From: an uncultured Acidimicrobiaceae bacterium
GTDB taxonomy: Bacteria > Actinomycetota > Acidimicrobiia > Acidimicrobiales > SZUA-35
Direction of reading: 5' to 3'
NCBI GenBank assembly: GCA_964609665.1
Contig: CAZSTV010000003.1
Span: 26,219 to 84,219 of the forward strand
DNA length: 58,001 bases
Below, piece after piece: positions 43,191-55,359 of this stretch. The position numbers were made by a program, and so were the translations under genes. The notes under the pieces were generated by a model, which was not told the DNA's origin, made no database searches, and was given only the letters and a program-made list of their open reading frames with translations. Numbering within the stretch: position 1 is the first letter of the stretch; every line of letters starts with the position of its first letter.

Positions 43191-46100
43191 CTACTCGACG
43201 ACGAGTTTGCGGCGACGGCTCCACCACAGCAGGCCGATGCCTGCCACAATGGACCAGCTTGCCAGCATCAGCTGAATGGCCACCATGCTCGGACCGGTGA
43301 AGGCCAGCGTGGTGGGACCGTCAGGCGTGATGCCTGCATCGACGGTGAGGTCCAGTTCACCTGGGCTGAGGTTGATGACGTCGGTCCGACCGGTGGGCAG
43401 CGGGTCGCTGTCCGCAGTGTCGTCGCCCTGGTTGCGGACCGTCCACCCTCGATCCTCAGGATCGGTGAATGTCACGCAGTAGTCGCCGGGGGAAAGCCCA
43501 TCGACAATCCACATTCCCTGGGCGTCGGTTACCGCCGAGCCGACGGCTACGTTCGGGCCGCAGCTGTAGACGGTGGCGGTGATGCCAGGCACGGCTGCTT
43601 CGTTGGCGTCCTGCACGCCGTCACGGTCCACATCGAACCAGACGTAGTTGCCAATGCCCGCAGCCTGCACAAAGCCGAAGTCAACCGTCGGGTTGTTTGA
43701 ACCGTTGGGCTCACCAACGGCGGCCAACACGATCGGCTGGGACCGGACGGCGCCACCGAAGATCATGTCGCCGTTGTCGTCGTCATCGTTGTCATTGTCC
43801 GGATCGGGTGCGGTGCCGTTGATGTTGTTGCCGCTGGATGAACCGAAGCCGTACAGAGCACCACCGGAGGTGAAGTTTCCGGCGATCATCTCAACGATGT
43901 AGGTACCCTCTTCAAGCCCGGTGAAGCTGTAGTTGCCGTTCACATCGGTGCTCGTGATCCGGTTGTTGCCGGAGCCATCGGTGACCGGGTTACCGGCGCC
44001 GTCGAATAGGTGCAGGACCGCATGAGCCACCACTGCCTCTGCCGGGTCCTTCACGCCATCGTTGTTGGCGTCGAACCACACCAGGTTGCCAAGCGACGCT
44101 GTGTAGAAACCAAAGTCCACCGTGAGGTTCGAGCTACCGTCGGCGATGCCGTTCGGCGACTCATCAACCTCGGCGGTCGGTTCGGTCCCGACCGTCACGG
44201 TGACGGTCGAAGAACGAACCGCGCTGCCAACCTGTTCGCCGTCGCTGTTGTCATCGACGTCGTCATCGGCGTTGGTGCTCACCCCTGAGCCGGTCGAAAT
44301 GTACCAACCGGCAAGCGGCGCACCGGCGGCAAACATCGATGCCGGGATCTCCACCACATACGAGCCGGGTGCAAGGCTGGGGAACGAATAGTGGCCGTCG
44401 GCGTCGGTCGTTTCCGAGGCGATCTGATTGCCATCGCTGTCGAGCAGGTTGACCGTCACCCCGGGGGCGGCCGACTCGCCGGCATCCCTGACACCGTCAT
44501 TGTCGATGTCGAACCAGACCAGGTTGCCAAGCTCAACGCCTGGCACCATGCCGAAGTCGAAGGTGTGGTCGGTGACCGACACGTTGACCGAGATGGACGG
44601 CAGGCCGTTCATCAACATCGCGTCGGAGTCCAGCGCATCATCGGACCCGGCATCGGCCACGGTCACAACACCCTTGCCAACGTGTGCCCCTCCGGCGGCG
44701 AAGACGCCACCGGCGTTGTAGTTGGTTTGGGCCAGACGGACTTTGTAGTCGGTGTCGGCGGTGATGTTATCGAAATAGTAGGTGCCGTTGGCATCGGTGG
44801 TGGTAGTAGCGATCACCGAGCCCGAGCTGTCGAGCAGCTCGACGACGACGCCGTTCAGCGGCTGCTCACCCGGGTCCTGAATGCCGTCCTCGTTTGCGTC
44901 GAACCAGACACGGTTGCCAATTTGGATCGAGGCGATACCACAGTTGGCCTCAAGATCGCCGATACCGGCGGCCTTCTCGAACGTTCCGATGTCAATCCCT
45001 GCGGTGCGACCGTTGTAGAGCCGGACACCGTTGACCTTGTCACCGGTGGTGTTGTCGAACCAGGCAAGGCCGCCGGACTGCCAGGTGTTGGCAGCGTCGT
45101 TCGGGTCGAACGAGTTTGAAATCACATAGGGCCGGCCGGGGATCTGCACCACGGCACCGATGGCGGTCTCTACGTGGGAAGTCGAATAGAAATCGCCGTC
45201 GTAGAAGTAGTCGCGGGAGTCATCATCGCCCGCCGGGAAGCTGTAGGACGAGCCACCCCAGACACCGCGGACGATGTCACCGGAGGAAATGGGCTGCTCC
45301 GAAGCGAAGCCGGCGTTGGGCTGGATGGCGGCACTCCAGTCCTCGTAGAACGCGTTGGCACCGGTCTGGTGAGCCCAGCGATCCATCACGCTGACGATGA
45401 TGTCGTCGCCGTCGAAGTCGATATCGGAGACCATCGGCTGCGGGTAGGTGTTGCCATAGTCTGGCAGGTCGGCCGAAGCGTACGGCATCTTGTCCACCCA
45501 CGGTCGCCACTCCGCCACCTGGCTGAATGCTGTTCCGCCGCTCACGCTGCTGCCGCGAGATGTGGTGGGCACCGGGACGGTGGTCACCTGACTGAAGAAG
45601 CTTCCGTCAAAGGAATGCACCCATGCGCCGAGAGCGGATGGAGTACCGAGTGCCGGCCCCGCGGAAGTAATCGGGGAGAACGATGCAGGAACCGTGGATT
45701 CTGCAGAGCAGACGGCACCGACGTGGAGCAGTCCGGCTTCGTTGAAGCCAAGGCCGAACGGTCGAACGTCACTGGCGGCGCAACTGCCGCTGATGCCGAG
45801 GGTGGTGGCGGTGATGGCAGTCCGTGTGACAGCGCCAGCGCTGCCGTCGGCATTGATTGTCACGGCGACCAGTTCACGGCGGCCAAGGTCGATGGTGTAG
45901 AGCGTGGAACCGTCGGGGCTGACTTCGACGTCACCAAGGCCGGCCTTGCCGACATCATCGAAGGCACCGAAGTCATACATCCAACCGTCGAGCGGGTTGC
46001 TCAACCCAAGCGCCGTAGCGTCGGCTTCGGCGGTGTGGGGATCGGTTGCGGTGGGGTCGGAGACAAACCATGTGCTGAGCGAACCGGACTCGGTGAGCCG

Positions 46101-46868
46101 GTAGATCGTGGTGGGGTTGCCAACGAGGCGGGTGTGGCGCTTCACCATGGAGCCGAGGAACACGTCGCCGTTCTTGGGGTTGACGCCCTGTCCCCAGACC
46201 GTGCCAACCTGGCCCAGGGTTGCGGTGACTTCATAGGACGGTGACGCCCAGTCGGTTTCGGCGTTCGAGTCCTGCACCCCGTCGACCACCTTCACAACGG
46301 CGGGCATGTTGTCATGATCGGCAACGTTGCCGAACAGGAAACATGACGTGATCAGGTGGGGGTTGTTCTGACAGAACGATCCGGGGGCGACAATGCCGAG
46401 GTTGCCCGCAGCGCCGTCACCGTCGAACGGAGCGGCGCAGTCGCTCGGCGCGGCGATGAACTGGGTCATCGTGCCGCTGTCCGGTCCGGCGTGGCCGGAC
46501 TGCCAGCCCGACGGCAGGGTGGAGAACTCCACCCGGACCGGGAACTGGGCATCGTCCACGGTCACGCTCCACTCACCGTTTGCATCGGTGGTGTCGGTAA
46601 CGACCACGCCGGTCGAGGAGGTCACCGTGACGGTAACACCCGCAACGCCGGGGTCGAGCTCGGTGGAGAACGATCCGGTGCTGGAACCCTGCGAGTCGTT
46701 GACCTCGCTGTAGTCCTCGTTTCGTTCACCGTCGGCGTCGTAGTCTTCATAGACGACGCCGCCACATGAGACGGGTGTGGCCGAGGCGACCGACGGTGAG
46801 AATGTCACCGTGATCGCGAGCAGTATGAAGGCGAGGACGGCTCGCCCTGCCGATCGCAACGTATACAT
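43191..46868 (-). CDS. Cell-wall-anchored (LAFTG sorting signal) surface protein with 5 SdrD-B/Cna-B-like repeats and a ~450-aa unassigned central domain
   Basis: Signal peptide (AVLAFILLAITVTFSPSVASA). Repeats are of the form GN.VWFD.N.DG..D..E......V.L.D..G.......TD..G.Y.F. The C-terminus is LAFTG followed by a hydrophobic helix and RRRK, which is the sortase-E-type LAxTG signal. Confidence 0.8.
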   Translation of the reverse strand: MYTLRSAGRAVLAFILLAITVTFSPSVASATPVSCGGVVYEDYDADGERNEDYSEVNDSQGSSTGSFSTELDPGVAGVTVTVTSSTGVVVTDTTDANGEWSVTVDDAQFPVRVEFSTLPSGWQSGHAGPDSGTMTQFIAAPSDCAAPFDGDGAAGNLGIVAPGSFCQNNPHLITSCFLFGNVADHDNMPAVVKVVDGVQDSNAETDWASPSYEVTATLGQVGTVWGQGVNPKNGDVFLGSMVKRHTRLVGNPTTIYRLTESGSLSTWFVSDPTATDPHTAEADATALGLSNPLDGWMYDFGAFDDVGKAGLGDVEVSPDGSTLYTIDLGRRELVAVTINADGSAGAVTRTAITATTLGISGSCAASDVRPFGLGFNEAGLLHVGAVCSAESTVPASFSPITSAGPALGTPSALGAWVHSFDGSFFSQVTTVPVPTTSRGSSVSGGTAFSQVAEWRPWVDKMPYASADLPDYGNTYPQPMVSDIDFDGDDIIVSVMDRWAHQTGANAFYEDWSAAIQPNAGFASEQPISSGDIVRGVWGGSSYSFPAGDDDSRDYFYDGDFYSTSHVETAIGAVVQIPGRPYVISNSFDPNDAANTWQSGGLAWFDNTTGDKVNGVRLYNGRTAGIDIGTFEKAAGIGDLEANCGIASIQIGNRVWFDANEDGIQDPGEQPLNGVVVELLDSSGSVIATTTTDANGTYYFDNITADTDYKVRLAQTNYNAGGVFAAGGAHVGKGVVTVADAGSDDALDSDAMLMNGLPSISVNVSVTDHTFDFGMVPGVELGNLVWFDIDNDGVRDAGESAAPGVTVNLLDSDGNQIASETTDADGHYSFPSLAPGSYVVEIPASMFAAGAPLAGWYISTGSGVSTNADDDVDDNSDGEQVGSAVRSSTVTVTVGTEPTAEVDESPNGIADGSSNLTVDFGFYTASLGNLVWFDANNDGVKDPAEAVVAHAVLHLFDGAGNPVTDGSGNNRITSTDVNGNYSFTGLEEGTYIVEMIAGNFTSGGALYGFGSSSGNNINGTAPDPDNDNDDDDNGDMIFGGAVRSQPIVLAAVGEPNGSNNPTVDFGFVQAAGIGNYVWFDVDRDGVQDANEAAVPGITATVYSCGPNVAVGSAVTDAQGMWIVDGLSPGDYCVTFTDPEDRGWTVRNQGDDTADSDPLPTGRTDVINLSPGELDLTVDAGITPDGPTTLAFTGPSMVAIQLMLASWSIVAGIGLLWWSRRRKLVVE

Positions 46869-47010: not shown

Positions 47011-47916
47011 ATGTCGTGCCGTGGCCAGGGGGACCAGATACATGCCGTTCGACGCGGCGGATCGCTAGCAGGCGGTACGGCAGTGTTTCCGTCGCTTTTC
47101 GAGATCGCCGGTGTACCGGTCGACACCCACACCACCTTCATCGCGCTCGGCCTCATCGCCGCAACCGTCTCACTGCTTATCGAGGCCCGACGCCGAGGCA
47201 AGCTTGATCAGCGACTGATCATCATCGGCGTCGGAGCGTTGGCCGCGGCAGGCGTCACCTCTCGCCTCGGGACCGGCATTGCGTACCTAGCGACCGAGCC
47301 GGACCCGACCTACCGGGGTCTGCTGGTAGAGGCGGGTCGAAGCCTGCTCGGCGGACTCGTCGGTGCCTACATCGGAGTGGAGGTCACAAAGCGGTTCGTC
47401 GGTGTTGGCGAATCCACCGGGGATCTGTTCGCTCCCGGGGTGGCACTCGGCCTCGCCATCGGTCGCATCGGCTGCTTCCTGACCGAGCAACTGGGCACGC
47501 CAAGTTCACTCCCATGGTCGATGACAATGAACGAGACTGGCGTGGATCGCGGTCTGCTGTGTCTGGACTGCGGGCAGTGTCCCACCTGCAATCCCGACAC
47601 CTCGTTCCATCCGTCGTTCCTCTACGAGATCACATTCCACACCATCGCCTTCGTCGTGCTCCGGCGGAAGCGCCACGATCCAAAGTGGCGGGACAAACTC
47701 CTGAGGCGCTACCTGATTGCCTATGCCGCGTTTCGGTTCCTGGTCGAGTTCGTCCGCGGCAACGTCGAGTTTCTCTTCGGCCTGACCGGCTCCCAGATCT
47801 TCATTATCTGCACCTCAACAATCACCGTGGCGTTGCTCCTGGCGACCAGGGTCCGCCGCAACCCAACAGCGAACACCGACGCCGCACCGGGCGATCAGGA
47901 GGCCACCTTCGTATGA
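47011..47916 (+). CDS. Prolipoprotein diacylglyceryl transferase (Lgt)-family membrane protein with a Cys-rich insert
   Basis: Lgt-type motifs GRIGCFLTEQLGTPSSLPW, HPSFLYE and YAAFRFLVEFVRGN, with about 7 TM helices. The true start may be the GTG at 47083 (VFPSLFEIAGVPV...). Confidence 0.65.
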   Translation: MSCRGQGDQIHAVRRGGSLAGGTAVFPSLFEIAGVPVDTHTTFIALGLIAATVSLLIEARRRGKLDQRLIIIGVGALAAAGVTSRLGTGIAYLATEPDPTYRGLLVEAGRSLLGGLVGAYIGVEVTKRFVGVGESTGDLFAPGVALGLAIGRIGCFLTEQLGTPSSLPWSMTMNETGVDRGLLCLDCGQCPTCNPDTSFHPSFLYEITFHTIAFVVLRRKRHDPKWRDKLLRRYLIAYAAFRFLVEFVRGNVEFLFGLTGSQIFIICTSTITVALLLATRVRRNPTANTDAAPGDQEATFV

Positions 47917-48341
47917 CCGACGATCCCAACCTCCCGTTTCAGCCGCCGAGTGGGCCGCGGCGCCAACCCGGGCCGGGGTCCGGGCCCGGACCCGGCAAGC
48001 CCTCGGTCAAGTCGAGCGGCGGCTACTCCTTGCTCGGTTTGTTCTTCGGGTTGGCGTGGGGACTCGTCGCGCCGCTCATCGTCGGTGGGTTGATCGCTGG
48101 GATGCTGGGGGCGATGGGCGTTACAGCCGGCCTGCAGTTGGCGCTGTCGATCATCGGGGCGGCGGTCATCGTGCTCGGCGCCTTCATCCTGGTCATCACC
48201 CAGTCCGATCCGAACATCCCGAGCCAAGCGGGCATCCGCATCGCAATGAAGGTGTCGGCCATCACCACCGTTGCTGTGTGGGGCATTGGGCTGCTGCTCG
48301 TCGGCCTGTGTTTCGCACTTCTCGTCGGGGCATACCAGTGA
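47913..48341 (+). CDS. Small polytopic membrane protein (Pro/Gly-rich N-terminus, 3-4 TM), unknown function
   Basis: Trimmed to ATG 47913, an ATGA overlap with the Lgt-like stop, with a CAGGAGG RBS 11-17 bp upstream. The rest of track ORF 47514.. lies inside the Lgt-like CDS. Confidence 0.55.
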   Translation: MTDDPNLPFQPPSGPRRQPGPGSGPGPGKPSVKSSGGYSLLGLFFGLAWGLVAPLIVGGLIAGMLGAMGVTAGLQLALSIIGAAVIVLGAFILVITQSDPNIPSQAGIRIAMKVSAITTVAVWGIGLLLVGLCFALLVGAYQ

Positions 48342-49972
48342 CAAGACACATCGATTCGCTCGGCGCGGCGCCGGGGATGCCCGTTAGAGAGGACACCATC
48401 CGCCAGTACGTGACGGCGTACTGCGGCGAATGCCACCGGGAGAATCCCGACGCGCCGCTCAGCTCGGTCGGCCGCTTGGCCGGCTACCTGTCCGAAGCCG
48501 ACGGCCAGGTCTGGCTGGTCCGCGGCTGCCCGACCCATGGGCGAGTCATCACCCTGTACGACGAGAGTCCGGAGATTTTGGACTGGTTGGAACGGTGGAC
48601 GGCGCCGACAAAGCACCACGTGCCGGACACCCCGGGCAACTATGACCCGATCCCCCAGGCCTACGCCAAAGGTCTCGGTGAGCTCCAGACCCAGCACACC
48701 TGCATTCTCTTGGAAGACATCATCGAGGGGTGCAACCTTTCCTGCCCGACGTGCTTCACCGACTCACCGACCAGGGCCGACACCTCGGTCCCGATGGACC
48801 AGATCCTCGCATCGGTGGATCAGCGACTGGCTCGGGAGAACGGACGTATTGACGTTGTCATGCTCAGCGGTGGCGAACCGACGCTCCACCCGGAGCTGCC
48901 CCAACTGCTCGACGAGCTGACCTCGCGCGATATCCATCGCATCCTCATCAACACCAACGGCGTTCTCCTGGCCAGAGACGACGAGCTGCTGCAGACAATC
49001 CAAGCTCACGACGAACGGGTAGAGGTCTACCTCCAGTTCGACGGGCTGCGAGGGTCAACCCACCGTCACCATCGCGGCGCAGACCTCGGCCAGATGAAGT
49101 TGCGGGCCATCGAGCGACTGAGCGAGGCGGAGATCTTCACCACCCTCACCATGACCGCGGCCAAGGGCGTCAACGACGACGAGATCGGTGATGTGATCGC
49201 GGTGGCGTTGGCCAACGACTACGTCGGTGGGGTGAGCATCCAACCGGAGTTTGGTTCCGGCCGCGGTGGCGGCATAGACCCGATCGACCGTCTCACCCAC
49301 ACCGGGGTGCTTGCCAGACTGGAAGACCAGACCGGTGGCCAGGTGACGTGGCGAGACCTGACGGCGCTGCCGTGTTCTCACCCCCACTGCGCAAGCGTCG
49401 GGTATCTCCTCAAAACCGACGACCGCAACTGGCAGTCGCTGATATCGCTCATCGGCGAGGATCAGTTGGCCCAGCACCTCGACCTGGTCTCGAACAAGGT
49501 GACCAGTCCCGAATTTGCCAGAGAAACCAAGACGCTGGTCAAGCAGGCAATCCTCGGTTTGCTGAGCGACCAAACCTCGCTCTCCCACCCCGACATCGGC
49601 AAGGCGTTCTCTACGGTCTGTGCCAGCTGCGACCTTGGCGTCGGAGAACTGGCCCGCCTCGCTGCGGGGCGGTTCGGGTCCGGCCGCAAACTCCGCCGGC
49701 TCCTCGCGGAACGCGTGGTCCGGGTGACCGTCAAACCGTTCATGGACATCGACACGATGATCGAGCCACGGCTCATGCAGTGCTGTGTGCACGTCGGCAC
49801 AAAGTCGGTCGATGACGCTCACCAGTGCGCGCCGTTCTGCGCTGTCCAGGCCTGGGGGCCTCTGTCCGACAGCCGACTGTCGCTGGCCACTGGGCCGACG
49901 GCGGCAAGTGCGGTAGGTGCAGCGGGCGCTACGGGCGCCGCGGCTCCGGTCACCATCGGGGTACGGCGATGA
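48338..49972 (+). CDS. Radical SAM enzyme with N-terminal Cys/His knuckle and C-terminal auxiliary-cluster cysteines (COG1964/Tes-like architecture, unverified)
   Basis: Trimmed to GTG 48338, a GTGA overlap with the upstream stop. CxxxCxxC = CNLSCPTC (48731-48754). The N-terminus has YCGECH...GCPTHG. The C-terminus has Cys pairs CSHPHC, CASC, CC and CAPFC. SGGEPTL is present. Confidence 0.8.
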   Translation: MTRHIDSLGAAPGMPVREDTIRQYVTAYCGECHRENPDAPLSSVGRLAGYLSEADGQVWLVRGCPTHGRVITLYDESPEILDWLERWTAPTKHHVPDTPGNYDPIPQAYAKGLGELQTQHTCILLEDIIEGCNLSCPTCFTDSPTRADTSVPMDQILASVDQRLARENGRIDVVMLSGGEPTLHPELPQLLDELTSRDIHRILINTNGVLLARDDELLQTIQAHDERVEVYLQFDGLRGSTHRHHRGADLGQMKLRAIERLSEAEIFTTLTMTAAKGVNDDEIGDVIAVALANDYVGGVSIQPEFGSGRGGGIDPIDRLTHTGVLARLEDQTGGQVTWRDLTALPCSHPHCASVGYLLKTDDRNWQSLISLIGEDQLAQHLDLVSNKVTSPEFARETKTLVKQAILGLLSDQTSLSHPDIGKAFSTVCASCDLGVGELARLAAGRFGSGRKLRRLLAERVVRVTVKPFMDIDTMIEPRLMQCCVHVGTKSVDDAHQCAPFCAVQAWGPLSDSRLSLATGPTAASAVGAAGATGAAAPVTIGVRR

Positions 49973-50262
49973 CCGATCCCCGCGTGCCACGACAGCTCCT
50001 CGGGCATGAGTTCAGCGGGGCAACCGCTGCGGCCGACCCGCTCGGCTGGTGTGTCATTGCGACCACCGCACTGCTGACGTGGCTGTTCGGTCCCATCGTT
50101 CTGGCCATCCTGGCTGCCATCGGTTTCGTCAAGTATTGGCGGGCATGGCGTTCAGGCCGACAGGACAGCCAGTGCATTCTGGGCGACATGCGCATCGTCC
50201 TGACCTACCTGGCCGTGCTCACGGTCATCGGTGTGGTGGCAACGCTCTGGTGGCTCAGCTAA
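49969..50262 (+). CDS. Small membrane protein (2-3 TM), unknown function
   Basis: ATG 49969 forms an ATGA overlap with the radical SAM stop. Hydrophobic segments are WCVIATTALLTWLFGPIVLAILAAIGFV and IVLTYLAVLTVIGVVATLWW. Confidence 0.5.
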   Translation: MTDPRVPRQLLGHEFSGATAAADPLGWCVIATTALLTWLFGPIVLAILAAIGFVKYWRAWRSGRQDSQCILGDMRIVLTYLAVLTVIGVVATLWWLS

Positions 50263-51144: not shown

Positions 51145-52350
51145 TCAGGAACCGGTGAAACTGAACGACACCGTCTTGGCGGACGTCACGCCGGTTGCGG
51201 TCAACTCCCAAACGGTCCCCGCCTGATCGGGGCTGCAGACCCATCGGAAGGAGAGGTTGCCTGCAGCGTCTGCCACACCGTTCTTGATGCCGGTCGCCTG
51301 CGGCGAGGTGAATGCGATCTCCTCGCCTGCGTCGGCACCGGTCAGGTTGCCGAAGACCCGAGCTTCGTCGTTGCAAACGAACGGGTCTTCGAGCAGCTCG
51401 ACCGCCAACGTTCCCTCGGCTGGGGCCGTGCCGGGATCGGCCGGTGCCGCCGCGCTTTCCAGCGCTCCGGTGAAGCTGATGGTGGCGGACTTGCCCGAGG
51501 TGACGCCGGTAGCGGTCAGCTCCCAGGTGGTACCTGCCTGGTCTGGTGTACAGGACCAGCGAATGGGCAGCGTTCCGTCAGCCTCGGCGGTGCCAGAGGT
51601 GAGGTTGGCGGTCTGCGGTGAGTTGAAGGCGATCTCCTCGTTCGGGGTTGCACCAGACAACTGGGCGAACGGCCGCAGCACGTTGTCACAGACGAACGGG
51701 TCCTCGGTGACCAGCACGTCGAGCAGGTTGGGGTTGACGGTGGTGGGGGGCGGAAGAATGGTGCTGTCGGGAGTGCCGGCCAGGTCGCCATCGGTACCGG
51801 CATCGGCTTCGGTGCTTGCGCCCGCGTCCGTCTCAGGCAGCGGATCGCCGCCGCTGAAGACCGACCACGCCGCCAACCCCAGCGCGATGAGCGCCACCAG
51901 CAGCAGCGCCAAAATAAACAGCAGAACAAGCCCAGTCCGGCGGCTCTTCACCACCTCGACCTCCTGCTGGTTGTTCTCCCACTCGTTGGCCTGAGGGGCC
52001 AGGATGTGAGGCTTCGGGGCAGATGGCTGCTTCTGAGAAAAGCCGGGTATGCCAACCCTGGTGTCGCCAAAGAGCGACTCGTCGGAATCGGCCGGACCGA
52101 CGCCGGTGCTTGGAAAGTCGGCGTCGAAGGCGTCCATTGGATCCCGCGGAGTGGAGGCGGAGTGGTTTCCACCAGTCGACCCGTGGGGCCGTGGCGGAAG
52201 CGAGGGCCGTGGCCCTGCCCGTGTTTCATCGCCTGACGCCATTGCCGCACCTACCTTGCATTCGGTGTTTGGTATCGGATCCGGGGTTGACCGCACCGCT
52301 CGGTCAATTTTAGGCCAAACGGTGCCGCCTTCAGCACCAGCTACAACCAC
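51145..52350 (-). CDS. Single-pass membrane protein with Pro-rich cytoplasmic N-terminus and two tandem ~95-aa Cys-pair extracellular domains
   Basis: TM GLVLLFILALLLVALIALGLAAWSVF. The internal duplication is PFVCDNVLRPF...IRWSCTPDQAGTTWELTATGVTSGKSATISFTG versus PFVCNDEARVF...FRWVCSPDQAGTVWELTATGVTSAKTVSFSFTG. The start is uncertain: 52350 or ATG 52242. Confidence 0.6.
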   Translation of the reverse strand: MVVAGAEGGTVWPKIDRAVRSTPDPIPNTECKVGAAMASGDETRAGPRPSLPPRPHGSTGGNHSASTPRDPMDAFDADFPSTGVGPADSDESLFGDTRVGIPGFSQKQPSAPKPHILAPQANEWENNQQEVEVVKSRRTGLVLLFILALLLVALIALGLAAWSVFSGGDPLPETDAGASTEADAGTDGDLAGTPDSTILPPPTTVNPNLLDVLVTEDPFVCDNVLRPFAQLSGATPNEEIAFNSPQTANLTSGTAEADGTLPIRWSCTPDQAGTTWELTATGVTSGKSATISFTGALESAAAPADPGTAPAEGTLAVELLEDPFVCNDEARVFGNLTGADAGEEIAFTSPQATGIKNGVADAAGNLSFRWVCSPDQAGTVWELTATGVTSAKTVSFSFTGS

Positions 52351-52403: not shown

Positions 52404-53003
52404 TCAGCCGTGGGCCGATGCGGCCCCAGACCCCTTCGCTACCCCACCGGCGAGGGGTACGAGCACGGCCAGCACCGACAAACCGCCCAGAAAAAGGTGG
52501 GCAACCAGCCACCGACGCAAGCTGGCGACGCTGACCTCGGACCCGTCGATGAGGAGGAACGTAATGTCCTCCTGGTCAAAAATGGCGGAGAAACCGGACA
52601 TATTCGTCCCGACCGTGATGGCCTGCAATGCCATCTGATCCCATGGAAGAAACGAGCCGCTGTACGCAGCTATGGCAAACACGACGACCGTTGCCAGACC
52701 GTAGAGGCGTCTCCGCATCCCGTACCTGACGGCGACGACGCCAGAGCAAATCAGCAACGCCACCGCCGACACGATGGAAGAGACCCGATGTCCGGCTTGC
52801 CATTGCACCGAGCGGTTGGTCGACCCGATGTCGGAAAAGGCGGTAGCGGCGGTCGGCTGATAGTTGAGGTAGAGCCACACCCCGCTGACCGTCACAGCGA
52901 CGAGTCCGACGGCGGCGATCCAGCCCGAGATACGTCCGACACGCTGCCAGCCGTCCACACCTGGGTGGTGTGGGTCAGTGGAGACGTCCTCGGTCGAGGT
53001 CAT
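52404..53003 (-). CDS. Cytochrome-b-N-terminal-domain-like 4-TM membrane protein (possibly single-heme)
   Basis: 199 aa. GSFLPWDQMALQAITVGTN resembles the cytochrome b/b6 G.sLPWDQ..wA..v.T motif. There is one His in the helix B-like segment (GHRVSS...) and one in the helix D-like segment (VAHLFLGG). Confidence 0.45.
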   Translation of the reverse strand: MTSTEDVSTDPHHPGVDGWQRVGRISGWIAAVGLVAVTVSGVWLYLNYQPTAATAFSDIGSTNRSVQWQAGHRVSSIVSAVALLICSGVVAVRYGMRRRLYGLATVVVFAIAAYSGSFLPWDQMALQAITVGTNMSGFSAIFDQEDITFLLIDGSEVSVASLRRWLVAHLFLGGLSVLAVLVPLAGGVAKGSGAASAHG

Positions 53004-53116: not shown

Positions 53117-53731
53117 ATGAACTGTCTGATCATCCACGCCCACCCCGACCCGGACTCGTTCAACACCGCGCTCCGGGAACGGGCGGTCGCCACACTCGTT
53201 GCGGCGAACCACCAGGTCGAGGTGATCGACCTGTACGGCATTGGTTACACCGCGGCGATGAGTGAACAGGAGCACATCGGCTACTACACAAACGGCCTCG
53301 ACCACCCCGACGCCGTCGTGGCCGAACACATCGAGCAACTGCGGCGAGCACAGATGCTGGTCTTCATCTACCCCACCTGGTGGTCGGGCATCCCCGCGGT
53401 GATGAAGGGTTGGCTGGATCGCACGTTCCTTCCCGAGGTGGCCTTCACCCTTGGCGACGAGACCCCTGGTGAGAAGGCCGAGGTGAGGGGCAACCTCGAC
53501 AACATCAAGCGTCTGGTCGGCATCACCACCTACGGCTCGAAGCGGACAGACGTGCTACTCCTCGGCGACGCTGGCCGACGGACTATCAGCAGAACGGTCC
53601 GACTGGTGTGCGCCCGGCGCTGTCGCACCACCTGGCTCGGCCTTCATCAACTCGACACCGCACCGCCGGAGAAACGCGCCGGGTTTCTGGATCAGGTCGA
53701 AACGACGTTGACCAAGGTGGCCGGTCGATGA
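53117..53731 (+). CDS. Flavodoxin-like-fold NAD(P)H dehydrogenase (quinone) family protein
   Basis: Trimmed to ATG 53117 (MNCLIIHAHPDPDSFNTAL...). Contains MLVFIYPTWWSGIPAVMKGWLDR. Confidence 0.8.
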   Translation: MNCLIIHAHPDPDSFNTALRERAVATLVAANHQVEVIDLYGIGYTAAMSEQEHIGYYTNGLDHPDAVVAEHIEQLRRAQMLVFIYPTWWSGIPAVMKGWLDRTFLPEVAFTLGDETPGEKAEVRGNLDNIKRLVGITTYGSKRTDVLLLGDAGRRTISRTVRLVCARRCRTTWLGLHQLDTAPPEKRAGFLDQVETTLTKVAGR

Positions 53732-54354
53732 CCAAGCCGCTGGCCAAGACCCTGACCAAGTCCCTGACAAGGACGCTGGTGGTGATCTGCCATCCGAAGC
53801 AGACCAGTTTGACCAGGGCCGCGGCGGCGCGGGTGCTCTCCGGACTGGATCGAGCAGGCCATGACGTGCGGACGCTCGATTTGTACGCAATGGGTTTTGA
53901 CCCCGTGCTTCGCCTCGGAGAGGTTCGTGATCACCTCGGCTCACCCCAGGACCGGCCGGACCTTGCCGAGCACTTCGACGCGCTTCGCTGGGCGGAACAA
54001 CTGGTCCTGGTCTACCCCACCTGGTTCTCGGGCCAACCGGCCATGCTCAAGGGCTGGTTTGACCGGGTGTGGATGAACGAGGTTGCCTTCACTCTGCCTG
54101 AAGGGTCAGCCAGGATTCGTGGCACGCTCTCCACGCTGAAGCGGATTCACATTGTCACCAGCCACGGATCAACCCGGCGGGTGAATTGGGTGCAGGGCAA
54201 CAGCGGACGCATCCGGGTCACACGGACTCTTCGGATTCTGTGCAACAAGTTCTGTCGGACGACGTGGACGGCGATCTATGACATCGACAACAAGTCCTCG
54301 AGCGAGATCGAGGCGTGGTTGTCGACGGTGGAGGAGACCTTCGCCGAGCGCTAG
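53728..54354 (+). CDS. Flavodoxin-like-fold NAD(P)H dehydrogenase (quinone) family protein, paralog of the preceding gene
   Basis: ATG 53728 forms an ATGA overlap with the upstream stop. LVVICHPKQTSLT... and LVLVYPTWFSGQPAMLKGWFDR parallel the upstream gene. Confidence 0.75.
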   Translation: MTKPLAKTLTKSLTRTLVVICHPKQTSLTRAAAARVLSGLDRAGHDVRTLDLYAMGFDPVLRLGEVRDHLGSPQDRPDLAEHFDALRWAEQLVLVYPTWFSGQPAMLKGWFDRVWMNEVAFTLPEGSARIRGTLSTLKRIHIVTSHGSTRRVNWVQGNSGRIRVTRTLRILCNKFCRTTWTAIYDIDNKSSSEIEAWLSTVEETFAER

Positions 54355-54411: not shown

Positions 54412-55359
54412 TTAGCTTGCAGTGAGGATCTCTGATCCCTCTTCGGCCTTGCGGGCCTCTGCGGCTTCTCGCCTGGTCTTGATCCGGTCCGCCACACGCT
54501 TCGACTTCTCGATGTAGGCGATGGCCCGCTCTCGAGCCTGCTCGGCCTCGGGGGTCAACCCTTCGAGGTTCGGGAGGTCCCAGTAGCGGAGCACGATGGG
54601 TTCCAGAATCTGCTCGTAGTGGGCAGCGAGATCATAAATGCCAGCGGCGGCGATCGCCTTGGCGTGGATGCCAAAGTCAGGGATGCCTTCGCCCGGCATG
54701 GCAAAGCCGACGATTTGGCGCTCCATGGCCTCTACCGCCTGGCTCGGATCAATATCGGTGGCCGCTTTCGCCACGTCCCGGTAGAACAGGAAGTGGTGGT
54801 TCTCATCCATGGCGACCCGGCGCATGATGTCGTAGCCGGCCCGGTCCTCGATGAGGGCACCGGTGTTGCGGTGGGAGATCCTTGTCGCCAACTCCTGGAG
54901 CGTGACGTAGATCAGACCGTCGATTGCCGAGGGCGGTTCCGGCACCTTGCCGCCGCCCATCTGAATCATGCGGCCGTTCTCGAGCGCCACAGGGTCGATG
55001 GCCCGGGTGACCGTCAGGTATTCACGGATCACGATGGCGTGGCGACCTTCCTCGGCCGTCCAACGTCGAACCCATTCACCCCAGGCACCGTCCGCGCCGA
55101 ACATTCGCTCAATGTCGCGGAAGTAGTACGGCAGGTTGTCCTCGGTCAGCAGGTTGACGAAGAGTGCGCTGCGCACCTCGGGCGACATCTCGGATTCTTC
55201 CGGCGACCACTCGTAGTCCGGCTCAAAATCCCGACCCCGGCTCCATGGCACCAGGGAATGCGGATGCCACTCTTTCGTCGTTGCGTAGTGATTCTCCAAG
55301 AGACGCTCGGCCTCTGGCTCAAGCTCTGCAAGCAGTGCGACGTCTGCGTCAATGACCAT
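54412..55359 (-). CDS. Soluble di-iron acyl-ACP desaturase (DesA1/DesA2-like)
   Basis: Trimmed to ATG 55359 (MVIDADVALLAELEP...). Contains NLLTEDNLPYY and WVRRWTAEEGRHAIVIREYL (EExxH di-iron motif). A second EL..R..H-type region follows (LQELATRISHRNTG). Confidence 0.85.
   Translation of the reverse strand: MVIDADVALLAELEPEAERLLENHYATTKEWHPHSLVPWSRGRDFEPDYEWSPEESEMSPEVRSALFVNLLTEDNLPYYFRDIERMFGADGAWGEWVRRWTAEEGRHAIVIREYLTVTRAIDPVALENGRMIQMGGGKVPEPPSAIDGLIYVTLQELATRISHRNTGALIEDRAGYDIMRRVAMDENHHFLFYRDVAKAATDIDPSQAVEAMERQIVGFAMPGEGIPDFGIHAKAIAAAGIYDLAAHYEQILEPIVLRYWDLPNLEGLTPEAEQARERAIAYIEKSKRVADRIKTRREAAEARKAEEGSEILTAS

Follow-up and report, generated by a model that had tools for sequence, protein, structure and literature searches.

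The stretch of DNA analyzed here (58,001 nt from an uncultured Acidimicrobiaceae bacterium, referred to below as the window, with all positions counted along it) carries a compact operon on its + strand. Its four open reading frames (ORFs), spanning 47011/47083-50262, encode a paralogue of the prolipoprotein diacylglyceryl transferase Lgt (ORF1), a small membrane protein (ORF2), a radical S-adenosylmethionine (SAM) enzyme akin to Tes, the tetraether lipid synthase of archaea (ORF3), and another small membrane protein (ORF4). The three start-stop overlaps chaining these ORFs together (ATGA 47913-47916, GTGA 48338-48341 and ATGA 49969-49972) were found exactly where a preliminary description of the sequence had placed them, and the GC content at third codon positions (0.78-0.85 in all four ORFs) was as expected for coding sequence in high-GC DNA. 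Among related loci, the radical SAM gene and ORF4 shared a 4-nt overlap in 51 of 63 cases and the Lgt-like gene overlapped ORF2 in 40 of 59; the operon arrangement is confirmed and lies well outside what chance would produce. The most probable start of ORF1 is GTG 47083 and not, as initially assumed, ATG 47011, since the consensus of its family and the gene called by JGI (on contig Ga0401119_000301 of metagenome 3300039178, which contains the window) both begin at the former and the stretch 47011-47082 displayed a non-coding GC pattern. For ORF3 the originally proposed GTG 48338 was upheld and the JGI start at ATG 48377 was dropped, because the peptide RHID[ST]LGxAPG encoded ahead of this ATG was kept in four loci, with mostly third-position changes and a start codon just upstream in each. 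Scans with E. coli-type consensus sequences, which are uninformative for this phylum, detected neither promoters nor terminators, and no second lgt was present within the window.

ORF1 (47083..47916, + strand, 277 aa) is an Lgt paralogue of a type that we designate H26/C146. The Lgt-family motifs initially reported for it were present and its match to the Pfam profile LGT (PF01790) was strong (2.2e-31, residues 27-276), while its score against the NCBIfam lgt equivalog TIGR00544 (64.8 bits) fell below the cut-off of 118.9. The sole solved structure matched by its AlphaFold2 model (predicted local distance difference test, pLDDT, 86) was E. coli Lgt 5AZB (E=1e-6, TM-scores 0.61/0.60). Residue conservation was examined in an alignment of 70 homologues from cassettes of the same clade as the window (the window clade) with E. 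coli Lgt. At the Y26 position (codon 47128..47130, + strand) all 70 proteins carried His, at H103 Leu was found in 67 of 70, and N146 (codon 47473..47475, + strand, within the motif GRIGC, the Arg of which is R143) was replaced by Cys in every sequence. Similarly, a second, distant clade introduced below displayed His in 59 of 63 proteins, an aliphatic residue at position 103 and Cys in 63/63. R143, R239, Y235, E243, R246, G104, G142, G145 and G154, on the other hand, were kept in 69-70 of the 70 sequences including that of the window; R143, R239 and Y235 were also found in 63/63 proteins of the second clade, in which E243 and R246 were represented by conservative substitutes (E/D and K). A CxxC motif in the head domain was present in about 76% of the cassette paralogues. 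Among E. coli Lgt mutants, H103Q is non-viable, while Y26A, N146A, R143A, G154A and R239A do not function; Y26 and N146 have been assigned to the entry of phosphatidylglycerol (PG) and H103 to thiol activation or prolipoprotein positioning, and R143 and R239 hold the PG phosphate (bioRxiv 10.1101/2025.03.27.645668). By homology with E. coli Lgt, the alignment thus shows an ORF1 family in which the predicted lipid-phosphate-binding residues are retained, while the presumptive lipid-entry and acceptor-positioning residues are changed.

ORF3 (48338..49972, + strand, 544 aa from GTG 48338) is a full-length homologue of Tes, also known as GDGT-MAS (MJ0619). Matches to the profiles Radical_SAM (PF04055, 1.2e-22) and HMPTM/MJ0619 zinc-ribbon (PF23545, 5e-8) were consistent with the canonical radical SAM triad, the Cys/His knuckle and the Cys pairs that had been claimed for it, all of which are present: the rubredoxin-like knuckle C29-x2-C32 ... 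C64-x2-H67 (48422..48538), the radical SAM motif CNLSCPTC with C132/C136/C139 (48731..48754) and eight C-terminal Cys, C346/C351, C428/C431, C482/C483 and C497/C501 (49373..49840), each on the + strand. All Cys listed in the preliminary description were invariant among 57 homologues, and the reading frame was uninterrupted, with Cys at every conserved position and no selenocysteine. The best-scoring named family was NCBIfam TrsS (NF045646; 197.5 bits against a cut-off of 490, residues 48-503), while the match to NCBIfam Tes (NF045702; 148.7 bits against a cut-off of 450) covered residues 46-350 only. GDGT-MAS (7TOL) was the top match in a sequence search of the PDB (E=2.6e-30) as well as in a Foldseek search with the ORF3 model (mean pLDDT 71), where it aligned over the full length (E=8e-23, 547 aligned columns, TM-scores 0.61/0.66, about 22% identity); the next Foldseek match, SkfB, reached only 2e-7. 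The placement of ORF3 in the Tes/MJ0619 class was therefore borne out by these matches, and a peptide-maturase or cofactor-enzyme family was not what ORF3 matched best.

The motifs of GDGT-MAS comprise a rubredoxin-like C9x2C12x20C33x2H36, a radical SAM CX3CX2C and a C-terminal CC...C region (PMC9433317). In the last of these, the region of the C-terminal cluster, QCCVHVG...CAPFC of ORF3 aligned with RCCIHYA...IIPFC of 7TOL. In contrast, the segment CPYDCGLC of 7TOL, which holds C73, C77 and C80, the Cys that together with a His ligate the [4Fe-4S]N cluster (PMC9433317), aligned with the Cys-free PIPQAYAKGLGEL of ORF3. The eight C-terminal Cys would leave room for two auxiliary Fe-S clusters. 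In GDGT-MAS, glycerophospholipids are bound with their tails in hydrophobic pockets and the C-terminal cluster is used for coupling (PMC9433317). The literature on the selenoproteins TrsS and Tso offered no functional lead, and the one review mentioning TrsS states no function for it.

Profile searches with ORF2 and ORF4 matched no Pfam, NCBIfam or PDB family. The earlier statement that neither carries a recognizable motif held at the profile level but not for the C-terminus of ORF2 (47913..48341, + strand, 142 aa), in which a Pro-rich N-terminal tail is followed by a terminal helix with a G-x-Cys tail, the most informative motif of all. The ORF2 family varied greatly: its members were 47-212 aa long, began with a part that was rich in Pro or helical, and contained between one and four transmembrane segments. 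Their one fixed feature was a last transmembrane helix ending in [K/R]-x(about 20)-G-x-Cys, followed by 6-17 residues (median 9). Among the 71 members with a Cys no more than 30 residues from the C-terminus (a further candidate lacked such a Cys), this Cys was found in 71/71 and the Gly at -2 in 69/71, and the nearest upstream Lys or Arg was mostly 20-21 residues away. The window protein displayed K-x19-C (Cys codon 48309..48311, + strand, read in the sequence), Gly at -2 and a 9-residue tail, and the mycobacterial proteins had a conserved sequence after the Cys, C-T-G-x-N-P-x-[ML]-Y. The terminal helix, in which a basic residue is followed by some 20 hydrophobic ones, G-x-Cys and a short tail, is built like a lipoprotein signal peptide, and the positive-inside rule would place the Cys at the outer-leaflet interface, a topology derived from charge distribution only. 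The ORF2-type gene was near-universal in the cassette, with a variable place and two copies in some loci; where the Lgt-like gene abutted the radical SAM gene, it had shifted to a place either immediately ahead of the Lgt-like gene or downstream of ORF4. An apparent absence from about 17 loci was dismissed, since in most of these the gene had merely relocated to one of these two positions. Mobility and duplication combined with conservation of the tail alone are typical of a substrate or recognition tag.

ORF4 (49969..50262, + strand) is a conserved small membrane protein with Cys at C28 (50050-50052) and C69 (50173-50175). Its family followed the pattern DPLxxC, 27-28 hydrophobic residues with a central GP, YxRAxRxG..S[RK]CxLxDxR and a transmembrane helix, in which the two Cys were invariant and the loop after the GP-containing stretch had a net charge of +5.

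The closest named relative of the window was a metagenome-assembled genome of the Acidimicrobiales. Homologues of ORF3 were far more widespread, with more than 6,800 database entries that remained 60-65% identical across phyla and ranged over Acidimicrobiia, Mycobacteriales, Nanopelagicales, Gemmatimonadota, Thermoanaerobaculia, Chloroflexota and Dormibacterota. At least 573 species-representative genomes carried a relative from the window clade, and clustering of the radical SAM proteins of this clade at 50% left one representative. In all of the 77 fetched genome loci with at least 1 kb of upstream sequence, covering Actinomycetota, Gemmatimonadota, Acidobacteriota and Chloroflexota, an Lgt-like gene was located upstream of the radical SAM gene on the same strand. 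Conversely, three of three Lgt-like matches picked regardless of radical SAM genes had one downstream, so that the proposed linkage was retained in relatives. Plasmid-borne cassettes were detected in M. avium, M. branderi and Chondrinema. A conserved, translationally coupled and horizontally mobile module thus exists.

No further neighbor was conserved across phyla, and flanking ORF clusters were common only to closely related mycobacteria. A P-type ATPase was encoded near the cassette in 11 loci including two from Acidimicrobiia, which we treated as weak. In these two (L047 and L062) the gene was divergently oriented upstream and may be there by coincidence. Mycobacterial cassettes (L001 2982-6558 and equivalents) were preceded by genes for a P-type ATPase, an ArsR-type helix-turn-helix regulator and a ZIP-like membrane protein, the likeness of the latter to the ZIP family being judged by eye with no Pfam match on record. 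On pS2b, a mobilizable linear plasmid of 344 kb from a clinical isolate of M. avium subsp. hominissuis, the cassette (L170, 2225-5545) consisted of the Lgt family gene, two small ORFs and the radical SAM gene with no ORF4, and adjoined a toxin-antitoxin pair and an IS110 transposase; the M. branderi plasmid (H2) likewise bears a cassette. Apparent fusions of the Lgt-like and radical SAM ORFs in L049, L060, L066 and L079 were rejected as out-of-frame read-through of high-GC DNA. In the metagenome contig L084 (6015-7587) the radical SAM protein was divided into two ORFs of 275 and 243 aa and a Cation_ATPase_C fragment replaced ORF4; the split may reflect a frameshift, pseudogenization or faulty assembly.

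A tblastn search against plasmids revealed loci in the Bacteroidota Chondrinema and Persicobacter, the only two named members of a second clade, with radical SAM proteins about 31% identical to ORF3 that retain GCPYDCGLCPDH, the N-cluster motif of Tes. In each of the two, an Lgt family gene was located directly upstream and its product displayed H26, an aliphatic residue at 103 and C146, while the downstream gene encoded a protein of 59-64 aa ending in K-x17-20-G-x-G-x-C-GSxx. A metagenome scan, in which this clade had at least 598 matches, added 80 loci. Upstream sequence of 800 nt or more was available for 68 of these. An Lgt-like gene was directly upstream in 62 loci, a few of them with shorter flanks, and an ORF with the G-x-Cys tail was found downstream in at least 42. 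The hidden Markov model of ORF4 matched 65 of 86 loci of the window clade and none of 82 loci of the second clade, and about 19 Mycolicibacterium loci were without ORF4. Since the second clade combines the Lgt signature and the G-x-Cys protein without ORF4, the core is a triad and ORF4 an accessory of the window clade. The universal unit is an Lgt paralogue with H26, an aliphatic residue at 103 and C146, a Tes-like radical SAM enzyme and a protein with a G-x-Cys tail, and the window carries all three, with the H26/C146 Lgt-like gene upstream of the Tes-like radical SAM gene and ORF2 as the tailed protein. Of the two dedicated small membrane subunits postulated in the preliminary description, the ORF2-type partner therefore proved to be universal, while ORF4 was confined to one clade.

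The clade to which ORF4 is limited is also the one whose radical SAM enzymes lost the three Cys of the Tes N-cluster (window 48650-48705 compared to about 6240-6290 of L087); a QH[ST]C motif adjoining the lost cluster is present in the enzymes of both clades. ORF4 might supply cluster ligands in trans to the window-clade enzyme, against which stand the approximately 19 mycobacterial loci that have no ORF4. A further relative without an Lgt gene was encountered on the Mycolicibacterium vanbaalenii plasmid NZ_CP126902.1 (L088, 4237-8267), where a Tes/TrsS-like radical SAM protein 30% identical to ORF3 has genes for CcdA, a protein disulfide oxidoreductase and a methyltransferase at its flanks. 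This partner set again points to membrane thiol chemistry.

In M. smegmatis, the canonical Lgt MSMEG_3222 is reportedly accompanied by a second homologue, MSMEG_5408, with the exchanges Y26H and N146C. The latter has been regarded as a low-activity or redundant Lgt, and neither of the two is described as essential. M. goodii carries the full four-gene cassette near eno and ppx, and the M. smegmatis protein A0R3B4, a member of the ORF4 family, clusters at 90% identity with its counterpart from the M. goodii cassette. Based on the Y26H/N146C signature, the presence of A0R3B4 and the complete cassette of M. goodii, we infer that MSMEG_5408 is very probably the Lgt of this cassette in M. smegmatis. 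We found no paper joining Lgt with a Tes-like radical SAM enzyme, and searches that took in the neighbors of MSMEG_5408 gave no link between it and the radical SAM enzyme or the small proteins. These results agree with the preliminary description, which knew of no such pathway in Actinobacteria; the system is not restricted to this phylum. Bacterial Tes homologues of unknown function were remarked on in both papers on Tes (one of them PMC9433317), and their distribution has been discussed as a possible capacity for branched glycerol dialkyl glycerol tetraethers (brGDGT), flagged there as unconfirmed (PMC11868695).

Judged from homology and gene context, the operon probably makes a previously unknown lipid or lipid-protein modification, which lends support to its initial reading as a putative system for the modification of lipids or lipoprotein anchors. 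That the module acts on a glycerolipid in some way appears likely. More specifically, we tentatively favor, with somewhat less than even confidence, a dedicated membrane module in which a non-canonical lipid-to-Cys modification would be tied to radical chemistry of the Tes type acting on lipid tails. In such a module the Cys of the ORF2-type protein would be placed at the outer-leaflet interface, and the active site of E. coli Lgt lies on the outer-leaflet side. The Lgt paralogue would move a diacylglyceryl-type group derived from PG onto the Cys of the G-x-Cys tail and not onto lipobox proteins in general. The cytoplasmic radical SAM enzyme would take hydrogen from a lipid-tail carbon and couple C-C or C-S through its C-terminal cluster, working either on the donor lipid prior to transfer or on the anchor after it; such remodeling of the lipid would explain why the lipid-entry residues of the paralogue differ from those of Lgt. 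In the window clade, ORF4 may dock or service the radical SAM enzyme at the membrane via its basic cytoplasmic loop and Cys pair. The expected product would be a lipid-modified small membrane protein with a remodeled anchor, whether macrocyclic, cross-linked or membrane-spanning.

Several points weigh against this favored reading. G-x-Cys is not a canonical lipobox, as the -1 residue is bulky and the Gly is located at -2. With three residues essential in E. coli Lgt replaced, ORF1 could be catalytically different or inactive, and a "low Lgt activity" has been presumed in the literature for MSMEG_5408. The Lgt site and the Cys tail would face the outer leaflet while the radical SAM enzyme is cytoplasmic, so that a flipping or extraction step must be assumed, and the topologies themselves derive from charge distribution only. 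ORF4 cannot be indispensable for the chemistry, since it is missing from about 19 Mycolicibacterium loci as well as from the second clade. We regard as less likely than not, yet realistic, the most far-reaching version of the proposal, an unrecognized and widespread protein lipidation in which the paralogue would lipidate an intramembrane Cys close to the C-terminus of a very small protein and the radical SAM enzyme would remodel the tails through C-C or C-S bonds into a macrocyclic or membrane-spanning anchor. If it were true, many bacterial Tes homologues currently read as brGDGT markers would serve a lipidation pathway instead.

The alternative that survives best assigns the module to free lipids. 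Here the radical SAM enzyme would couple the tails of bacterial glycerolipids as Tes does, leading to macrocyclic or membrane-spanning lipids such as diabolic-acid or brGDGT-type precursors. The paralogue would handle lipid only, for example by shifting the diacylglyceryl end or head group at the outer leaflet, which would let a bolalipid span the membrane, and the small Cys proteins would be structural or assembly subunits. The closest characterized relative of ORF3 joins lipids through C-C bonds, a role as brGDGT enzymes has been put forward elsewhere for bacterial Tes homologues, the PG-binding arginines are conserved in ORF1 and the residues changed in it are those assigned to lipid entry. 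This explanation, however, accounts neither for the single invariant Cys at a fixed depth in the third partner nor for the variable, sometimes duplicated and tag-bearing behavior of this partner. The cultured Mycolicibacterium and Nocardia hosts are not known to make membrane-spanning lipids, which we also counted against it, and we consider a free-lipid pathway rather unlikely.

Less probable still, at a level that we would call low, is a thiol, metal or Fe-S service complex, in which the Cys of ORF1 (C146 and the head CxxC), ORF2 and ORF4 would form a membrane relay that feeds electrons or sulfur to the multi-cluster radical SAM enzyme or repairs it, with the Lgt-like protein as an inactive scaffold. 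Each membrane component contains an invariant Cys, the head-domain CxxC occurs in about 76% of the paralogues, ORF4 is restricted to the clade in which the radical SAM enzyme has no N-cluster Cys triad, the radical SAM gene of the M. vanbaalenii plasmid lies beside CcdA and a disulfide oxidoreductase instead of Lgt, and the mycobacterial cassette neighbors the P-type ATPase, ArsR-type regulator and (by eye) ZIP-like genes. These metal-related neighbors, however, were not conserved beyond mycobacteria, and the strict retention of R143, R239, Y235 and the Lgt glycines in two deeply diverged clades argues that phospholipid binding and catalysis have been retained.

[quoted passage not shown] The neighborhood contained no conserved protease or exporter, though, and the radical SAM enzyme is of the Tes type and not a SPASM-type peptide maturase, SkfB being a distant second match. 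The -1 residue of G-x-Cys is moreover not known to suit signal peptidase II, and we view this possibility as quite improbable. Finally, an ordinary housekeeping lgt placed by coincidence beside an unrelated radical SAM gene, as the public annotation of ORF1 ("prolipoprotein diacylglyceryl transferase") might suggest, is hardly credible and, in agreement with the preliminary description, was refuted by the score under the equivalog cut-off, the replacement of three essential residues in all 133 sequences examined, the 77/77 linkage repeated in a second clade, the plasmid copies and the separate canonical Lgt (MSMEG_3222) of M. smegmatis.

Elsewhere in the window, a surface protein of 1225 aa, in which SdrD_B/Cna-B-type domains are repeated and which ends in a sortase-like signal (LAFTG, a transmembrane segment and RRRK), is encoded divergently from the cassette (43191-46868, - strand). 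On its other side follow a membrane-anchored protein with two tandem Cys-containing domains of about 100 aa (...DPFVC...RW.C.PDQAGT.WELTATGVTS...; 51145-52350, - strand) that has no Pfam match on record, a 199-aa gene product with a faint cytochrome-b match (52404-53003, - strand) and, behind the latter, tandem overlapping Flavodoxin_2/FMN_red genes resembling NAD(P)H quinone reductases (53117-53731 and 53728-54354, + strand). The Rfam match to the small RNA ASdes (54983-55050, + strand; 55.2 bits, E=2.6e-10) lies antisense within an FA_desaturase_2 gene (54412-55359, - strand) and may reflect conserved desaturase coding sequence.

The cassette provides a testable context for the bacterial homologues of the archaeal tetraether synthase, which have already been used to infer brGDGT producers, and recasts the mycobacterial "second Lgt" as part of a conserved machine instead of a redundant weak Lgt. 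Its short C-terminal tag, [K/R]-x20-G-x-Cys plus tail, marks mini-proteins that could not be annotated otherwise. The system is also tractable, as it very probably occurs in M. smegmatis, in which genetics can be done, and was found in a clinical M. avium isolate on a plasmid that can be mobilized.

Compared to known systems, the component families are familiar; what appears to be undescribed is the way they are combined, along with the Lgt signature and the G-x-Cys tag. ORF3 resembles Tes/GDGT-MAS (MJ0619, 7TOL) in collinear full-length homology, fold, knuckle, radical SAM motif and CC...C region. It differs in scoring under the family cut-off, in its lack of the Cys ligands of [4Fe-4S]N, in four additional invariant Cys (PCSHPHC and CxxCD) and in being bacterial with membrane-protein partners, of which the Tes/GDGT-MAS papers examined make no mention for the archaeal enzyme. 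TrsS (NF045646) is its best-scoring named family with a match that takes in the C-terminal half, but ORF3 remains far below the cut-off and contains no selenocysteine. MSMEG_5408 shares the Y26H/N146C signature of the ORF1 family, whereas the papers found treat it as a possibly redundant weak Lgt, outside any radical SAM or small-protein context. With E. coli Lgt (5AZB), ORF1 has in common the LGT domain over its whole length, the fold, R143, R239, Y235, E243 and R246 as well as the motif glycines; it is set apart by Y26H, H103L and N146C and by its sub-cut-off equivalog score, and unlike E. coli Lgt its family is accessory, at times plasmid-borne and always paired with a Tes-like radical SAM enzyme and a G-x-Cys-tail protein.

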